Source: Ginglymostoma cirratum (Eukaryota). From it: DNA of 64,000 bases. Positions within the stretch are counted from its first letter, which is position 1; each line of letters opens with the position of its first letter. Shown piece by piece: positions 2,368 through 57,618 of this stretch. A program made the position numbers and the translations under genes. Location of the stretch: the NCBI GenBank assembly GCA_024137785.1, contig JAHRHZ010000289.1, positions 20,706,512 through 20,770,511 of the forward strand, written 5' to 3'. The notes below the pieces were generated by a model. It worked only from the letters and a program-made list of their open reading frames with translations, was not told the origin of the DNA and searched no databases.

Positions 2368-4668
2368 AAGAAGTTGCTGGAAAGGTTCAGCAGGTCCGGC
2401 AGCGTCTGTGAAGAGAATGTCTGTGAGTTAACGTTTTGGGTCCGGTAACCCTTGCTCAGAACTGATGCTAGCTAGGAAAATGTTGGTTTATATGCAGAAG
2501 ATAGGGTGGTGGGAGGAATTAAGGAGTAAACAATAGGTCAGGATAGAGCTCAAAGAGAGAAAAGACAGACAAAGAAGTGGATAACAATCTGGCTGGATGA
2601 GTGAATAGCTGATAATGGAGACTGTTAGTGGCTAGCAGCAGGTAGTATGCAATGGCAGACCATGTGATAACAAGGCCTGGTGCATGGGATTGGGAGCTAG
2701 CACATGGTAGAGTTCAGGCCCTAAAATTATTGAACTCGGTATTAAGTCCGGTGGATTGCAGGATCCGCAAGTGGAAAATGAGATGTTGTTCTTCCAGCTT
2801 GTGCTGAGCTTCACTAGAGCACTACAGCAAGCCTGAGACAGAGATGTTGACCAGGGAACAGGGTGGTGTGTTACAGTGGCAGGCAACTGGAAGCTCAGGG
2901 TCATTTTTGTGAGCAAAACATAGGTGTTCTGCGAAATGGTCCCTTTCCATGTCCATCCCCCAGCAGGATGGTCTCAGGTCTCTCCGCTTCTTCCTGGAGC
3001 AAAGGCCCGAACTGTCCCCACCCACCACCACCCTCCTCTGCATGGCTGATCTTGTCCTCACCCTTAACAACTTCTCTTTTAACTCCTTCAGGTCAGGGGG
3101 GTGCCCATAGGTACTCCCATGGGCCCCAGTTATTCCTGTCTTTTCGAGGGATATGTGGAACATTCCTTGTTCCAGTCCTATTCCAGGCCCCACCCACAAC
3201 CCTTTCTGCAATATATCAATGATATCATCGGTGCTGCTTCCCTCTCTTGTCCAGAATTGGAAAAGTTCATCAATTTCACTTCTACCCCATCCTCACTTTC
3301 ACCTGGTCTATCTCTGACGCCTCCCTTCCCTTCCTCGACATCTGTTACCATTTCTGGGGATAGACTGACCACTAATATCCACTATAAACCCACTGACTCC
3401 CACAGCTACCTGGGCTATACATCCTCATACCACACTTTCTGTAAAGACTCCATTCCATTCTCTCAGTTCCTCTGTCTCTGTCACATATGTTTCAATAAGG
3501 CCAATTTCAACAAGACAGCCTCTGAAATGTCCACTTCCTTCCTCAACTGAGGATTCCCCAGCACCTTTGTCAACAGAGCTCTCACCTGGGTCTGACCAAT
3601 CTCCCTCCCTTCAACCCTCACCCCCTCTCTTCCCTCTCTCAACAGCGATAGGGGTCTCCTTCTCCTTAGCTGCCATCCCACCAGCATCCACATCTAGAAG
3701 ATCATCAGCTGCTATTTCCACCCCCTCCAGTGAGATGCCACCACCAGACACATATTCTCTCCCCTCCCTTGTCTGCCTTCAGCAGGGACTGTTCCCTTCA
3801 GGACACCTTAGTCCACTCTTCCTTCACTTCCAACACCACCCAACAGCCCCATGGTACCTTCCCCTGTAACTGCCAAAGGTATAGTACCTGCCCATTTACC
3901 TCCTCCCTCCTCAGTACCCAAGAGCCCAAACTTACCTTCCAAGTGAAGCACCAATTTACCTGCACTTCCCTCAATCTAGTCTACTGTGTTCTCTGCTGAC
4001 AATGTGGTCTCCTCTACGTTGGGGAAACAAAGCATAGACTGGGTTATTGCTTCGCACAACACCTATATTCTGCCTGCAAAAAAAGACACTGAGCTTCCAG
4101 TAGCTGCCACTTTAACACACCATCCTGTTCCCTGACAAACATCTCCGTCTTTGGCTTGCTGTAGTTCTCCAATGAAGCTCAGTGCAAGCTGAAAGAACAA
4201 CATTTCAACTTCTGCTTGGGGATACTACAGCCTTCTGGACTCAATATTGAGTTCAAAAACTTTAGGGTCCAAAATCTTTCATCTCCTAGACCCCAACCCC
4301 GCACACCAAGCTGTGTTATCATATAGTCTGCCATTACACACTACCTAATGTTAGTCACTAACAGTCACCATTAACAACTATTCATTCTCCTAGCCAGATC
4401 GTTATCAACTCTTTTGTCTGTCCAACTGTTCCTTTCTCTCTTTGGGCTCTATCCCCATCTATCATTTACTCCTCACACTCTCACACCACCTTATCTTTTG
4501 CATATAAACCGTCATTTCCTAGCTACCATCAGTTCTGAGGATGGGTCACCAACCCGAAATATTAACTCTGGTTTCTTTTCACAGATTTTGCCAGATCTGC
4601 TGAGCTTTTCCAGCAACTTTTGTTTTTGTTTCTGATTTACAGCATCCGCAGTTCTTTCGGTTTTTATT
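2368..4668 (+). mobile_element. Neptune-type Penelope-like element, 5'-truncated, with an inverted copy of its 3' end at 2368-2940
   Basis: RT motifs GVPIGTPMGPSYSCLF and QYINDII. Linker GTFPCNCQRYSTCPF. GIY-YIG LVYCVLC..GLLYVGETK. HHR motif at 4531-4567. 15-bp TSD tagtctagtggaacg (2353-2367) / tagtttagtggaacg (4669-4683). Contains frameshifts and stops. Confidence 0.92.
4531..4567 (+). ncRNA. Minimal hammerhead ribozyme motif in PLE 3' terminus
   Basis: AGTT-CTGAGGA-T-GGGT(CACCA)ACCC-GAAA-TATT-AACT. Stem I is AGTT/AACT; stem III is the palindrome ATAT. Confidence 0.65.
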
Positions 4669-4779
4669 TAGTTTAGTGGAACGTCTGGTATATGTAACCA
4701 AATTGATGATCATTAGCTGTTGAGGAACAAATCGAAATTTTCATATTAGTTTGCTGTAATCTGGTACAATAACAACAAC

Positions 4780-7803: not shown

Positions 7804-8014
7804 TAACGGAAATAGAAATTGCTGGCAAAACTCAAGCGGTCGGGCAGCATCTGTGGGAAGAATGCAGAGTTAACATTTTGAGTACAGTGACTTGTCATCA
7901 GAAGATCAACATTAATTCTGCTTTCTCTCTACAGATGCTGCCGGACCTGCTGAGTTTCTCCAGCAATATCTGTTTTTGCTTCAGATTTTCAGTGTCCACA
8001 GTTCTTTGATTAAT
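7804..8014. mobile_element. Palindromic PLE-terminus mini-element (decayed HHR on the minus arm)
   Basis: Inverted arms gaaattgctgg..gcagcatctgt / acagatgctgc..ccagcaatatc. The minus strand has CTGATGA..AAAATGTTAACT at 7868-7903. 11-bp TSD gttaccttata (7793-7803 / 8015-8025). Confidence 0.8.
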
Positions 8015-19232: not shown

Positions 19233-20138
19233 TGACCTGGAATTTCCAATCGCCTGACAGTTGTTATTTCAGGGAATTGTATGTGGGGAGCTTTCACGGC
19301 AAACTCCAAACAAATGGCTAAGGAGATGGAAATTTCTGCTGGGAAATTTCCCATGCCTGGAATCCTCTGAAAGTCTCAGTATTAAATCGGAGAATTCGGA
19401 AGATTCCAATGAAATTAACTAAATAGTCACTTAGAAGAAGCTGAACTGTTAAATGCATATCCTACCTCATGTTTGACTGGTCAACTGACTTCATATTTAT
19501 AACACCTGACTGCAACTAGACCTCTGCCTGATCACTTACACTCTTCAGACCCTGACCTAAGCCCCCTTCCACAACTCTGCAGCTGACTCATCTCCCAACG
19601 CCTCTGGACTGCACCCTCTCTTGACCCTGCTCCATACGCAAACCCCTTCTCCCCCTCTGGATATATTCCCCCTTCCCCTGCCCTCAGATTGGATCTCCAC
19701 AGTACCACCAGACTCATCACACACCTCAGACCTGACTCTCACCCTCAATGCCCCCTGCCAGACCAGATCTTTAAGTCTACCCCAACCTACTCTAAGTACT
19801 GCATTACTTACCAAGCCCATTGCCACCTTGCACGCTGACATTCTAACCACTTGGTGCTTTATCCTTTCCAACCCTGACACCTTCTACACCTGGCACCCTA
19901 GCTCCTACCCAGCTGCCAGTTCTGAGGAAGGGTCACCACACCTGAAAAGTTAACTCTGATTTTTTTCTTCACCAGACCTGCTGAGCTTTTCCAGCAACTT
20001 TTGTTTTTGTGTCAGTTTGCTTATCTGGCTCTCCATAATGAAAATTCTGTCCTTGCCAGCACTTTCCCCAAAGGCAGTGGGCTGGACCAGGAATTTTCCC
20101 AAATTGCAGTATCTGAAATAAGGGTGAAAATCCAGACT
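19233..20138. mobile_element. Non-autonomous TIR (Harbinger-like) element with a C-rich interior
   Basis: Ends gacctggaatttcc / gaaaatccagact are roughly inverted. Start and interior are homologous to 34768-34810 plus 37115-38060. Confidence 0.45.
19917..20010 (+). mobile_element. HHR-headed PLE-terminus mini-element (no tail)
   Basis: AGTT-CTGAGGA-A-GGGT(CACCAC)ACCT-GAAA-AGTT-AACT (19918-19955), then ccagacctgctgagcttttccagcaacttttg. Confidence 0.75.
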
Positions 20139-23948: not shown

Positions 23949-24080
23949 AACTGAAAGAACTGTGGACGCTGTAAATCAGCGACTAAAACAGAAATTGCTG
24001 GAAAAGCTCAGCAGGTCTGGCAGCATCTGTGGAAAGAAATCACAATTAACATTTTGGGTCGAGTGACTCTTCCTCAGAAA
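23949..24080 (-). mobile_element. HHR-headed PLE-terminus mini-element with full tail
   Basis: Minus strand CTGAGGA-A-GAGTCACTCGACCC-AAAA-TGTT-AATT, followed by the same terminus as 4531-4668. Confidence 0.8.
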
Positions 24081-31329: not shown

Positions 31330-31504
31330 CATCAGAGGAGCAGGAAGGCTGACATTTCGGGTCTAGACCCTTTTTCTGAAGAAGGGTTTAGACCCGAAAC
31401 GTCAGCTTTCCTGCTCCTCTGATGCTGCTTGGCCTGCTGTGTTCATCCAGCTCTACACCTTGTTATCTCAGATTCTCCAGCATCGGCAGTTCTTACTATC
31501 TCTA
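31330..31504. mobile_element. Palindromic PLE-terminus mini-element (left arm cut by the gap)
   Basis: catcagaggagcaggaaggctgacatttcgggtctagaccc is inverted relative to gggtttagacccgaaacgtcagctttcctgctcctctgatg; the right arm ends in the full tail. Confidence 0.85.
31374..31405 (+). ncRNA. Minimal hammerhead ribozyme motif
   Basis: CTGAAGA-A-GGGT(TTAG)ACCC-GAAA-C-GTC. Core is intact; stem I is only about 2 bp. Confidence 0.65.
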
Positions 31505-31654
31505 AAGGCAATATCAATGTTTTTGGATTAAGCCAAAAGTAGTATGGAAATATTCTGAATTCAACAATTCAGGCACTAGTTTCGAAGACGTGACTATTGA
31601 TGCAAGGGTTGATTTGCGTTGCTTCCATGGGAATTCCAATATCAACAAAATTAA

Positions 31655-46519: not shown

Positions 46520-46664
46520 ATTTCACATCAGGCCACCCTCCCAAATCCATTTTTAGATATTTTTAATCAACCTTTTTAGACATATCATCACCTCTGGAGC
46601 CGGTAGGAATTGAACCAAGGCCTCCCCTGGTTCAGTGATAAAGGCGCTACACTGTATCACAAGA
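46520..46664 (-). mobile_element. tRNA-derived SINE fragment
   Basis: Minus strand tcttgtgatacagtgtagcgcc..ggttcaattcctacc; homologous to 23018-23128. Confidence 0.55.
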
Positions 46665-46787
46665 ACACCTCCAACTTCAATTTTAAATTAAAAACTGAAA
46701 GAACTGTGGATGCTGTAAATCAGGAACAAAAAAAAAGTTGCTGGAAAAGCTCAGCAGGTCTGGCAGCATTTTTGAAGATAAAAACAG

Positions 46788-46825
46788 AGTTAATGTTTCG
46801 GGTCCGGTGACCCTTCCTCAGAACC
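46788..46825 (-). ncRNA. Hammerhead motif, left arm of the twin
   Basis: GGTT-CTGAGGA-A-GGGT(CACCGG)ACCC-GAAA-CATT-AACT (stem III CG changed to CA). Confidence 0.6.
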
Positions 46826-46862
46826 GTTCTGAGGAAGGGTCACCGGACCCGAACCATTAACT
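46826..46862 (+). ncRNA. Hammerhead motif, right arm of the twin (core variant GAAC)
   Basis: GTT-CTGAGGA-A-GGGT(CACCGG)ACCC-GAAC-CATT-AACT. Confidence 0.5.
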
Positions 46863-48197
46863 CTGTTTTTTCCTTCAAAGATACTGCCAGACCTGCTGAG
46901 CTTTTCCAGCAACTTTGTTTTTGTTCAATTTTAAATTGTCAGTGGTATTCACTCGAATCAACAAAGTGCCAACTTAAATGTGTAAATTGGATTCCAATGA
47001 TGCAGTATTGAAATCTTGGGTCCAGGTTTTCAAGGTAAAATCATGGGTTCATCCTTTATAGGGCTTCCTATTGAGGAAAGCAAATAGGTTTAGACAAGGC
47101 TGAATCAGTTGAGTTGCATTATATTTTTCATAATTTCCTGGATCCTCCCTTCTCTCAGTTTCTTGCTAAAGGTGATGAGAGGTTCTACTCCTTGTAGTTT
47201 TATGAGAATGGATATGATAATGAGGTGCTGATGAAAATTATCAGCATCAAATGTAACAGACTGTGAAGAAAGGATAGAATAGTCTGTACTAGTACACAAT
47301 GTTCTTATAGAGAGCACATGTTCATAAAAGAGTGTTCAAAAATGTACCAGAGTTAAATAACAGTCAATTATGGGTAATGGGAAGCCCTTACAGGCCACAA
47401 ATTACCAGAAGAGACAAGGATAGCCATCTCCCCAATGTGCATGTTGGAACCCTAAGCAATAAGCCTTGTATGAACACAAACCACTCTCCTCAAAGCCAAA
47501 TAAAGACTCGTGAGTCTGAGCCTTCCTGTTGGGCACAATCCCGACATTGACCTCAATTCCAGAATGGAACTCAGAAGTGGCCATGACTGGATATTGGTTG
47601 TGATCTCCCTGGAAGCTGCCAATTAAGAAGCTATCTCTTGAACTCCCATCTATTAAGGATGGCTGGCAAATCCAAGTAGGCAGGCAGCCCATTGGAATAG
47701 CTGGCAGAAGTCTCTGGCTGGTAACGCAACCAGGAAAGATGGGCATTGCTGGGGAAAACAAGAGATTACAAAGCTCCCTCAAAAGGAGGTGCTCTCTGCA
47801 GCCTTGTGAAAATTATGTTATATAATGGATGGCCATAGCCACACCTGGGTGAGTGTGTGCAGGTGTAGGTGGCTCGCTGTGCTGCCATCAAGAGGTTACC
47901 TTCAGAGCTCCATCTCAATGAGAAGCCCATCCACCATTGAGGAAGTACCCAGCTGACCCTCAGTGAGCCAAAAGGTAAACTAAATTGGTTAACAATGTGG
48001 CAAAGTCGCTTGGACGTGTCAAGGTACTGCATGGCTGATTGACACTTTTCTTCTGGTCCTGCCTCCTTATCTTGCCCATGAGACCAGGAAAATTAGTTCT
48101 TTGGATTTCGAAGGTCAATGTATCTGTTTCCATTCAATCCTTTGCTATATACTTTAGGATAATCCTGCTACAGCTATTGGGATTTGATGGAAACCTC

Positions 48198-49460: not shown

Positions 49461-49511
49461 TACAATTTAATCTGGATTTTTGGATTTTGAACCAACAGCT
49501 AATGAGTTTGG

Positions 49512-49619
49512 CTGATTCAGTTCTGAGGAAAGGTCACTGTACCTGAAACGTTAATTCTGTTTTCTCCTCCACAGATGCTGCCAGACCTGCTGAGGTTTTC
49601 CAGCAACTTTGTTTTAGTT
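49512..49619 (+). mobile_element. 108-bp HHR-headed mini-element with TSD
   Basis: Exact 14-bp TSD gctaatgagtttgg (49498-49511 / 49620-49633); contains only the HHR and the PLE terminus. Confidence 0.9.
49519..49556 (+). ncRNA. Minimal hammerhead ribozyme motif, intact
   Basis: AGTT-CTGAGGA-A-AGGT(CACTGT)ACCT-GAAA-C-GTT-AATT. All core bases and all three stems are present. Confidence 0.75.
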
Positions 49620-49654
49620 GCTAATGAGTTTGGACTGTGTTAATGATGTACATA

Positions 49655-54890: not shown

Positions 54891-56358
54891 AACTCTTTTC
54901 GTTATCTCATGTCTGGAGGACCTTTTGCTGTCATGAATCTTCATGACTAGAACCTATAATAAAGCTTAAGTGTGTAAAAGGAAGTTTGGAAACTATTCCA
55001 TTCATTTGAGAAGAGTGAGATGAATGGGTATTTGTACATTATGTGCAGTCAGACATAAACTAAAAACTTTTTGATAATATTACATGACTTCGACTCAAGC
55101 TCCTACCTAATACTATTCTTTGACCAGAAAATGTAGTACAGATCATTTCTGTCAAGGAATTTAGCCACATTATCATGAAAATATGGTCAAAATCCTGACC
55201 CCGTGATTCTATGATTCCAGAAGCATATAATCAAATTTTGATAACTGTTTCTCGATATTTCAACTGGAAATTTCAAAATTCCTTTATCAACACATTTATT
55301 TTGACTTGTTACCAGTTAAGGTTATTTCAGATAAACTGAGAAATTTTACAGCGAGCTGCTACATGACAGTGGATATAAGTAGATGGAGTTAGCTACAAGA
55401 TTCAAGTAGTGGAGAAGCTCATTAGCTGAAGTTTTCCTTGAGAAAATATTTATAATCTGAGGTTATGCAGCTGCTTTGTTTTCGACCATTACTGCATTGT
55501 AGCTCCTAGCACTTGGCATTCATCACAAATAATGGTTCTATTCCATGAGATCAAGCTGAAATGTTATGGAACCATCTCAAAACTGCTGAATATTTGCTTT
55601 ACATTTTTTTTAATCTTGTAAAATAACCTGGAAAGAGAGATTGTGCTGGCACCTAAACTCTGGGTTATAAGATGGTCCACACTCTTAGTCGAAAACATTA
55701 TTATTTTGGTTCTTTAAGAGGCTATCATTCAAAAATGAATTGATTTTTCATTTTTAAACAATATATTTCTCTCTACCTTCCTGTTTCCTCGGATCAGACA
55801 GCATTTCAGTGAGAAGGCAAAGAAGTAATCTGCTTCCAGGCTGGTGCATTTTTGAATCTATTGTAGAGAGCAAACTAGACTTCTCATGTTGATTCTGCAC
55901 AAGATTTTCTCTTCATTTTTATGGATGACCTCCTGTTTTCCTCATAGATCTCTTAACAGCAGCATATCTGAGAAAAGTAACTCATAGTGTGTGGGTCTAC
56001 ACCTAGGAACTGAATTCTAAACCCTTAGTGGGACTATGCTTTGGAGCTTGAGCTCCATTACCTAATTTTAGCATTTCCTTTTCATAGGCGTGGAAAATCT
56101 CTTAGATTCAATTATTTTGGTTAATGTTGTGGATTTTGCATCCAGCCGGATACCTTTACCTAATGTCACAATACTTATGTTATCCCTCACAACATGAAAA
56201 AACTAGGTATGGATAACTTGGTATTTAAAAATGCAAGAGACCTTATTGCAGCTGTCTACTACATATAAATATTACCGCCACAGGCAATTCAGTATCTAGG
56301 CCAAGGCGTAGAGCTGGAAGAACACAGCCGGCCAAACAGCATCTGAGGAGCAGGAAAG

Positions 56359-56390
56359 ATGACGTTTCAGGCCTAAACCCTTCTTCAGAA
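56359..56390 (-). ncRNA. Hammerhead motif, left arm of the twin
   Basis: CTGAAGA-A-GGGT(TTAG)GCCT-GAAA-C-GTC; core intact, stem I weak. Confidence 0.6.
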
Positions 56391-56392
56391 AA

Positions 56393-56424
56393 TTCTGAAG
56401 AAGGGTCTAGGCCCGAAACGTCAG
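56393..56424 (+). ncRNA. Hammerhead motif, right arm of the twin
   Basis: TT-CTGAAGA-A-GGGT(CTAG)GCCC-GAAA-C-GTC-AG; core intact. Confidence 0.65.
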
Positions 56425-57618
56425 CCTTCCTGCTCCTCTGATGCTGCTTGGCCTGTTGTGTTCATCTAGCTCTACACCTTGTTACATCAGATTGTCCAGC
56501 ACCTGCAGTTCCTACTATCTCAGTATCTAGGCCATTTGATTATAAAGAGTAACATGCTTTCAATAAAGTGTCATGATTCAAGTAATCCAAGTTAAGATGC
56601 GATTTTTATACCCTTAGGTCACATGCCATGATACAGTGATGATGTCATGAGCATGTCTCTTAAAGGCTTACTCTGCTACAATTTCATTTAAGGTATATTA
56701 ATATACTGACTGTGAGACATAGCACAAAACTTGATATTGCCAGTCCCTTTACTTTCCTTTCTGTTTGTTACAAAAGTCAATGGGTTAAATCATACTTTTT
56801 TTTGGCTAAATGTAAGTTGTGTTGAGTTTTTTGGAAGGATTCACAAAGTGAGGCCCAGTGATACATTTTTCTGTAGTTTACCAAGTCCATCTTATTAACT
56901 AGGGCATCCCTTGCATTTGATTCTAGCTCCATCTCACCAAATCTTCTGCTCCTCTCTGCTGTCTGACCCAAAACATCAATCTCCATTTTTTATTTCATTC
57001 TCCTCCCATGTTCTCCTGTCAATCAGGCAAATGTGAAAGAAGAATTGTTTTACCCCTGGATGATCATGCATTCTAAGACATCACCCCAATACAGCTCCAC
57101 ATCAAGGCACCTGGTGCCCTTCTTAAAGTGGTTAGAGCTTTATAAACCTTTTAAGTATGGGTAAGAAGATATAGTTGAGATGCCAGTATGAATTTGCTGT
57201 AACTCAGTACTAACATTGTGACTTCATTAAGTCACCCACAAATCATGAGGAGGTCATTTACTCCAGTGGATTCTCACCTTTACTGTAATTCAAAACATTG
57301 CAGAGGTGTAGGTGACAACTTGCCAGAAGCCTGTACAGATTTTATCACTCAATTTTAAACTACACACAGTGGTGGTCATTGCTGGCTCCCAAACCAACCA
57401 CAAATCACTAGCAGAATAGATGGGAGGAATCTACCACAGCATTGCTTGAAGAGAGATCCTGCTATAATTAAGGAAGTCTTGAAGTTGATCTGGCACTCAT
57501 ATTTCCTTCAGTCTCTCGAGCGTGTTCAATCTTAAAAGCTTCTTCAAGTTGATCACACTGCCGCTTTGTGTGATGATGAAATCTGCTGCTTAATTTAATC
57601 CCCAATGTTTCTTTTCAG

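Follow-up and report, generated by a model that had tools for sequence, protein, structure and literature searches.

What produces a short palindrome in which two hammerhead ribozyme motifs point outward from a single central nucleotide? Such a structure, 234 bp long, lies in the window, the whole 64,000-nucleotide stretch of Ginglymostoma cirratum DNA analysed here, to which all coordinates refer. The first-pass annotation read it as a non-autonomous, MITE-shaped retro-element made by enzymes of Penelope-like elements (PLEs), with both arms copied from one template.

Architecture of the 234-bp unit

In the window sequence, inverted arms of 101 nt (46724-46824 and 46826-46926; 94% complementary) stand 1 nt apart, and an exact 14-nt direct repeat (46676-46689 and 46924-46937) flanks the 234-bp unit. 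The palindrome with its 1-nt centre and 14-bp target-site duplication (TSD) had been described as such and is borne out; the arms had been put at ~98 bp. The unit is asymmetric: the left arm is longer by 34 nt (46690-46723) that represent the PLE tail. The first 3 nt of the TSD match the element too, which constitutes a microhomology. In the numbering used throughout, +1 is the A located 4 nt before the hammerhead core. The features are as follows.

46676-46689, plus strand: TSD, left copy, 14 bp, an exact repeat; 14 is the modal TSD length (23 of the 59 loci with a clear TSD)
46690-46824, minus strand: long arm, equivalent to leader positions +2 to +136 of the PLE RNA; the same sequence ends long copies with reverse transcriptase (RT) and GIY-YIG remnants and opens full-length copies
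46690-46723, minus strand: PLE tail, 34 nt, +103 to +136 of the element RNA, left arm only; family 3' ends are bimodal
46787-46824, minus strand: hammerhead (minimal type I) carried by the long arm; its core is complete, while CpG decay has removed the helix III palindrome; activity is a prediction
after 46792, minus strand: predicted hammerhead cut of the long arm, from sequence
46825, no strand: junction base at the +1 position, not the templated base (sequence and junction comparison)
46826-46926, plus strand: short arm, +2 to about +102, its last 3 nt common with the TSD (sequence and TSD survey)
46826-46862, plus strand: the short arm's minimal hammerhead, with a core mutation at 46854, a position that differs from family contigs too
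46924-46937, plus strand: TSD, right copy, an exact repeat
2371-4669, no strand: a further, long insertion of this family with two arms, one inverted (2371-2935) and one direct (2940-4669), the latter holding RT and endonuclease (EN) remnants and a TATA/initiator-like region

The unit is one insertion of two head-to-head copies of the PLE leader, covering its first 100 and 136 bases, and it is an ordinary member of an already known PLE insertion shape. A subfamily with C at +1, considered as the source of the centre base, was found in none of 327 arms. Directly left of the unit lies a tRNA-like short repeat (46590-46670, minus strand) with repeat-level depth, in which ARAGORN calls no tRNA.

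Hammerheads were assigned on the basis of the motif described in PMC4209133, and the likeness to its minimal type I ribozymes comprises the core, the bulged base preceding helix II, the short helix I and the palindromic helix III. The minimal core and helices are present in the family majority sequence and in 70 of 110 arms. Two outward-facing cores had been reported for the unit, and one is sound: the left arm alone keeps every core nucleotide, the right core has GAAC instead of GAAA, and the palindromic ACGU of helix III is missing in both arms. Rfam returned no hammerhead match in the unit, only sub-threshold hairpin matches and nothing relevant. Truncation of arms at the ribozyme cut was rejected, since none of 87 arms had its 5' end at the predicted position (+35) and no peak occurred there. 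In the insertion process proposed below, the hammerheads would be passengers.

The 234-nt unit folds with -165.4 kcal/mol (z = -20.7; none of 200 shuffles was equally good). The claim that any transcript through it would be a long hairpin is thus correct as a fold prediction, with the right core mutated. Such palindromes are open to misannotation as MITEs or microRNA hairpins. The unit had also been described as non-coding, which holds for this minimal form without the main ORF, whereas full-length copies carry a 30-codon upstream ORF in the arm, with the main ORF beginning further on.

No empty site was seen among the contigs of a relative. In contigs from three runs (X1, X3 and X9) the short arm is followed by the right flank found here, and the site is therefore filled in the relative, whose flank is about 6% diverged (13 listed differences over about 210 nt). 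One contig of run X11 has, at 46932, 27 other letters ahead of the right TSD; they match neither the arm nor the left flank next to it and may reflect a deletion allele or an assembly artefact.

The parent element and the ends of its copies

A DNA search yielded 3,411 candidates, and the 40 that were scored match across both arms (two of them, L012 and L024, are one locus). An exact pattern of two cores within 30 nt identified at least 1,737 head-to-head junctions (control, 0), and a 33-nt arm motif gave 20,157 matches. Copies have TSDs of their own, and in the 59 loci with a clear TSD the modal length is 14.

The arm ends long copies in which decayed RT and GIY-YIG frames lie upstream of it. 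On these copies Pfam gave no match at E 0.01 and sub-cut-off matches at a looser setting (RVT_1, E 0.012; GIY-YIG, E 0.042), while Atlas places the endonuclease frame with GIY-YIG clusters at 0.96-0.97. A cysteine cluster precedes the GIY-YIG region and may correspond to the Zn-finger-like linker of the Neptune/Nematis clade. In 15 of 30 loci found by the N-terminal region of the main ORF, the arm continues into the ORF start; 3 of these 15 copies begin at -1/+1, 7 follow a partial tandem and 5 start within the arm. Since the arm both ends long RT/GIY-YIG copies and leads into the ORF, it represents the pLTR and RNA leader of an endonuclease-bearing (EN+) PLE, and the traits of EN+ PLEs are found here: a 30-40-nt tail, an inverted 5'-truncated copy and a TSD. 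Judged by its frames, the parent is a Penelope-like element with RT and GIY-YIG domains and a pLTR segment both at the 3' end and before the ORF. The earlier attribution to PLE enzymes is in agreement with this, the arms being the ribozyme-bearing end of such an element. L157, considered as a full-length copy, turned out to be two separate insertions.

Other products of the same family in the window are a solo short arm with a TSD (49500-49625), an asymmetric pair (7810-8007), a solo long arm inside a longer degenerate duplication (23949-24079) and a solo short arm (19919-20018). A second PLE family, with the same head-to-head layout and a core 4 nt after an initiator-like A, is found at 56220-56520, where it has a 14-bp TSD, and at 31330-31505. 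Elsewhere, the flanks of a solo arm (L128) resemble an inverted rather than a direct duplication, and L234 has two acceptor-like sites (branch point, pyrimidine tract, CAG), located at +56 of the arm and at about +173 and both followed closely by an ATG; within host introns, the arm might trap splicing.

The 5' ends of arms were surveyed in a sample of 90 among the matches listed for the 33-nt motif (five loci are unrepresented), three of which abutted N gaps and were left out. Of the remaining 87, 49 ended at -5 to +8, 19 further upstream and 19 downstream. Together with the junction census, this pile-up at +1 means that the fold-back centres are not scattered at random, a point on which the first-pass reading depended. 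Upstream of +1, TATAAA is found close to -29 in 9 of the 15 long copies, while 14 of them have an initiator-like motif. In the second PLE family, TATA-like and initiator-like motifs occupy matching offsets, and inspection by eye places the starts of its short copies at the corresponding position. We infer from the motifs that +1, 4 nt before the hammerhead core, is the transcription start; for the D. virilis element the start has been placed differently (PMC2377424). A cap-derived G at +1 was indicated in the sample (18 of 38, against 18 of 115 at other offsets) and was not clearly borne out genome-wide, where G was counted 1,171 times against 988 expected and A 1,604 times against 1,563; many of these G come from microhomology. 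The copied part does not include the predicted promoter, which lies upstream of it, and the 234-bp unit is therefore likely a dead, one-off product.

At the other end, arm 3' ends cluster near +100 and +136 (87 arms). Solo insertions and long copies also end near +100, which is therefore a primary start site. In the 43 of 49 pattern-picked pairs that could be scored for tails, exactly one arm was tailed in 37, both in 1 and neither in 5 (p 8e-7), and short arms ended well before +92 in 16 of the 43. The TSDs have a GC content of 31%, indicating AT-rich targets, and microhomology with the target at the two outer ends was 1.49 and 1.37 nt, against 0.53 and 0.60 (59 loci).

Source and priming of the two arms

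If both arms were copied from one template, they should share private variants. Using the 59 of 81 palindromes with both arms long enough, we counted 76 non-CpG variants that differ from the majority and are common to both arms, where permutation gives 19.8 +/- 4.5, and in a pattern-picked subset of 29 loci 58 shared variants against 17.4. A diagnostic site scored genome-wide was C/C in 198 loci, T/T in 114 and mixed in 43, where 168 mixed loci are expected under independence. Two different RNA templates per insertion were rejected as an explanation: 30 mixed loci were fetched and two duplicates dropped, and in the resulting 28 the arms still had 17 other variants in common, against 2.6. Later gene conversion or homogenisation was rejected as well, since CpG decay is independent in the two arms (at six CpG columns both were mutated 21 times, against 20.1 expected) and conversion hence does not explain the shared variants. 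Both arms derive from one source copy, and one RNA molecule and two RNAs of the same locus are indistinguishable in these data. This upholds the earlier claim of a single template, and half of the original argument for it: ttcaaa is informative (4 of 118 arms, two of these being the unit's own), whereas CATT for CGTT is CpG decay (34 of 116 arms).

An unselected set of 36 two-armed loci contained 31 tailed/tail-less pairs, 3 short/short, 1 long/long and 1 internal inversion. Among the 31 pairs, the tail-less arm reached more than 10 nt further 5' in 16 and the tailed arm in 7, with 8 equal; a TSD was found in 11 of the 16 (controls, 0). In L195, the tail-less arm spans -805 to +99 and the tailed arm +87 to +136, a difference in 5' reach of 890 nt. 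Such a tail-less arm holds sequence that the tailed arm lacks and is therefore not a copy of it. Shared variants were in excess in 22 asymmetric pairs, L148 being left out (13 against 7.1, p 0.003).

The reading we favour is twin priming in place. The endonuclease would nick the two strands about 12-14 nt apart, and each 3'-OH would prime reverse transcription by 1-3 nt of pairing on the same uncleaved RNA, one near +136 and the other near +100, i.e. ~35 nt apart. Both cDNAs would then run off the RNA 5' end at the predicted transcription start, with the leading cDNA displaced by the trailing copy, and host end joining, presumably polymerase-theta-like, would link the two cDNA 3' ends with microhomology and templated fillers. 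That the 234-bp unit is a one-source, twin-primed, in-place insertion of two PLE leader copies, likely dead, we consider probable. The direction predicted by a leading and a trailing enzyme draws weak support from the pairs (16 against 7, p 0.09). More tentatively, and with slightly less than even confidence, we propose that a PLE dimer primes both nicks on one RNA ~35 nt apart, that the tail reflects the spacing of the active sites, that the trailing enzyme displaces the leading cDNA, and that over half of what the family produces are run-off copies of the leader that lack a promoter, with helix I formed by the leader's first four bases; antisense self-priming would thereby be replaced as the origin of inverted pLTRs.

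The junctions bear on the alternatives. Of 50 examined, 38 were distinct (two L066 junctions among them are probably one insertion across a gap); the commonest, found 7 times, has a 1-nt centre, and an overlap junction occurred 5 times. Among 20 fillers of at least 6 nt, a 6-mer of the arm start is present in 10, compared with 3.6 after shuffling. In L255, L265 and L272 the arms are joined via the helix I complement, so that +1 in one arm meets a point near +35 in its partner.

The alternative that survives best, although we regard it as unlikely, is fold-back or self-priming, in which one cDNA snaps back at its 3' end and copies itself, close to the proposal in PMC3846280. It accounts directly for a single template and for variable short-arm lengths, and both the overlap junction (5 of 50) and the helix I-complement joins suit a snap-back. 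L155, with the head-to-head layout at 1.7 and 2.3 kb and arms that resemble each other at 93% and other copies at no more than 90%, is compatible with it too, as is L212, a symmetric palindrome with arms of about 540 nt, two short ends and a junction at -440, which is the best fold-back case. Symmetric units such as the 234-bp unit are, individually, compatible with fold-back as well. However, in 16 of the 31 pairs each arm has sequence absent from the other (up to 890 nt), the +100 end also occurs in long copies and solo insertions, a single nucleotide forms the centre of the most frequent junction (7 of 50), and like microhomology is seen at both outer ends. The simple fold-back implied by the earlier one-template wording fails on the tail-less arms that reach further 5', and the family statistics, from thousands of copies, favour twin priming on one source RNA.

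It is less probable still that twin priming occurs with the inner end set by RNA processing or structure, either a 3' splice site (CAG/TT) or release after the ribozyme fold. The upstream sequence can also be read as branch point, pyrimidine tract and CAG, the D. virilis intron ends at helix I (PMC4209133), and the G counts at +1 are not clearly cap-derived. Yet the arms have no common upstream exon and many keep bases at +1, -1 and -2; stalling should leave a 5'-end peak on the 3' side of the fold, and none is seen there; and TATA-like and initiator-like motifs recur at these offsets in the second family.

Very improbable is the MITE-like, non-autonomous retro-element propagating itself as a whole unit: uniform size, at least 1,737 junctions, a TSD of its own for every copy and two recurrent junction types would suit it, but 38 of 50 junctions are distinct, same-junction loci share fewer arm variants than others (0.05 against 0.18 per pair), 72 loci have 35 distinct both-arm variant sets, promoter-like motifs upstream of the copied part were left behind, and 8 of 88 loci are symmetric units, which grade into solo and asymmetric forms. 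With variants unlinked to junctions, this part of the first-pass reading is not supported. A MITE is copied whole, with a homogeneous interior and inverted repeats at both termini, whereas here most junctions differ and one end has a 34-nt overhang; the 234-bp unit is probably not a self-copying MITE.

Comparison with known systems

The head-to-head layout with a one-sided tail is already published: units of the EN+ PLE Pen2a_Av have an inverted pLTR, a one-sided tail of 30-40 bp and a TSD (PMC3846280; scheme in PMC8557442). Our unit resembles these in its head-to-head inverted copy, the tail on one end, the TSD and the palindromic junction, and differs in being a minimal form without ORF, both arms of which end at one fixed point, and in a TSD of about 14 bp as opposed to 8-10 in Pen2a_Av-type units. 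For the inverted pLTR, PMC3846280 proposes self-priming on an antisense template, whereas the present data favour twin priming. How the inverted repeats and one-sided tail arise is an open question according to PMC8557442, and PMC3846280 leaves it to experiment; twin priming, if true, would account for the mirror ends built by this class of elements. We found no twin-priming proposal for PLE palindromes in the literature covered, and Repbase, Dfam, subscription papers and supplements, which lay outside it, may hold such families.

Minimal hammerheads of PLE pLTRs are described in Schistosoma as dual motifs 100-700 bp apart on opposite strands (PMC4209133), whereas the cores here are 8 nt apart and the right one is mutated. 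With the tandem hammerhead units termed non-LTR retrozymes (bioRxiv 10.64898/2026.07.22.740005), the unit has in common that it is short, non-coding, PLE-derived and hammerhead-bearing; it is not tandem head-to-tail, its cores being head-to-head on opposite strands. MITEs share the inverted-repeat shape, but here there is no inherited unit, no fixed TSD sequence and no terminal inverted repeat at both ends.

In LINE-1 twin priming, the second target strand primes internally with microhomology. Non-overlapping inversions of that kind also occur here (L185, L195 and L220); unlike in LINE-1, however, synthesis from the second strand begins at a fixed point close to the 3' end, and as a rule the two cDNAs overlap over nearly their whole length.

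The proposed scheme fits what is described for the anole PLE Poseidon PAc (PMC11167929): in vitro it cuts and extends both strands, initiates reverse transcription at two points, one on either side of the tail, and accepts RNA that has not been cleaved, and the protein is a predicted dimer. The two starts, the extension of both strands, the uncleaved RNA and AT-rich targets are all features of our scheme. PMC11167929, as far as it describes these reactions, reports no homology between the cut DNA and the start site and does not derive inverted products, whereas 1-3 nt of microhomology are found here. In the present family, moreover, a leader containing a short upstream ORF makes up the arm, and a cysteine cluster suggests a linker of Neptune/Nematis type. 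The positions +1, about +100 and +136, together with the stagger of about 14 nt, provide exact values for testing such a reaction in vitro.
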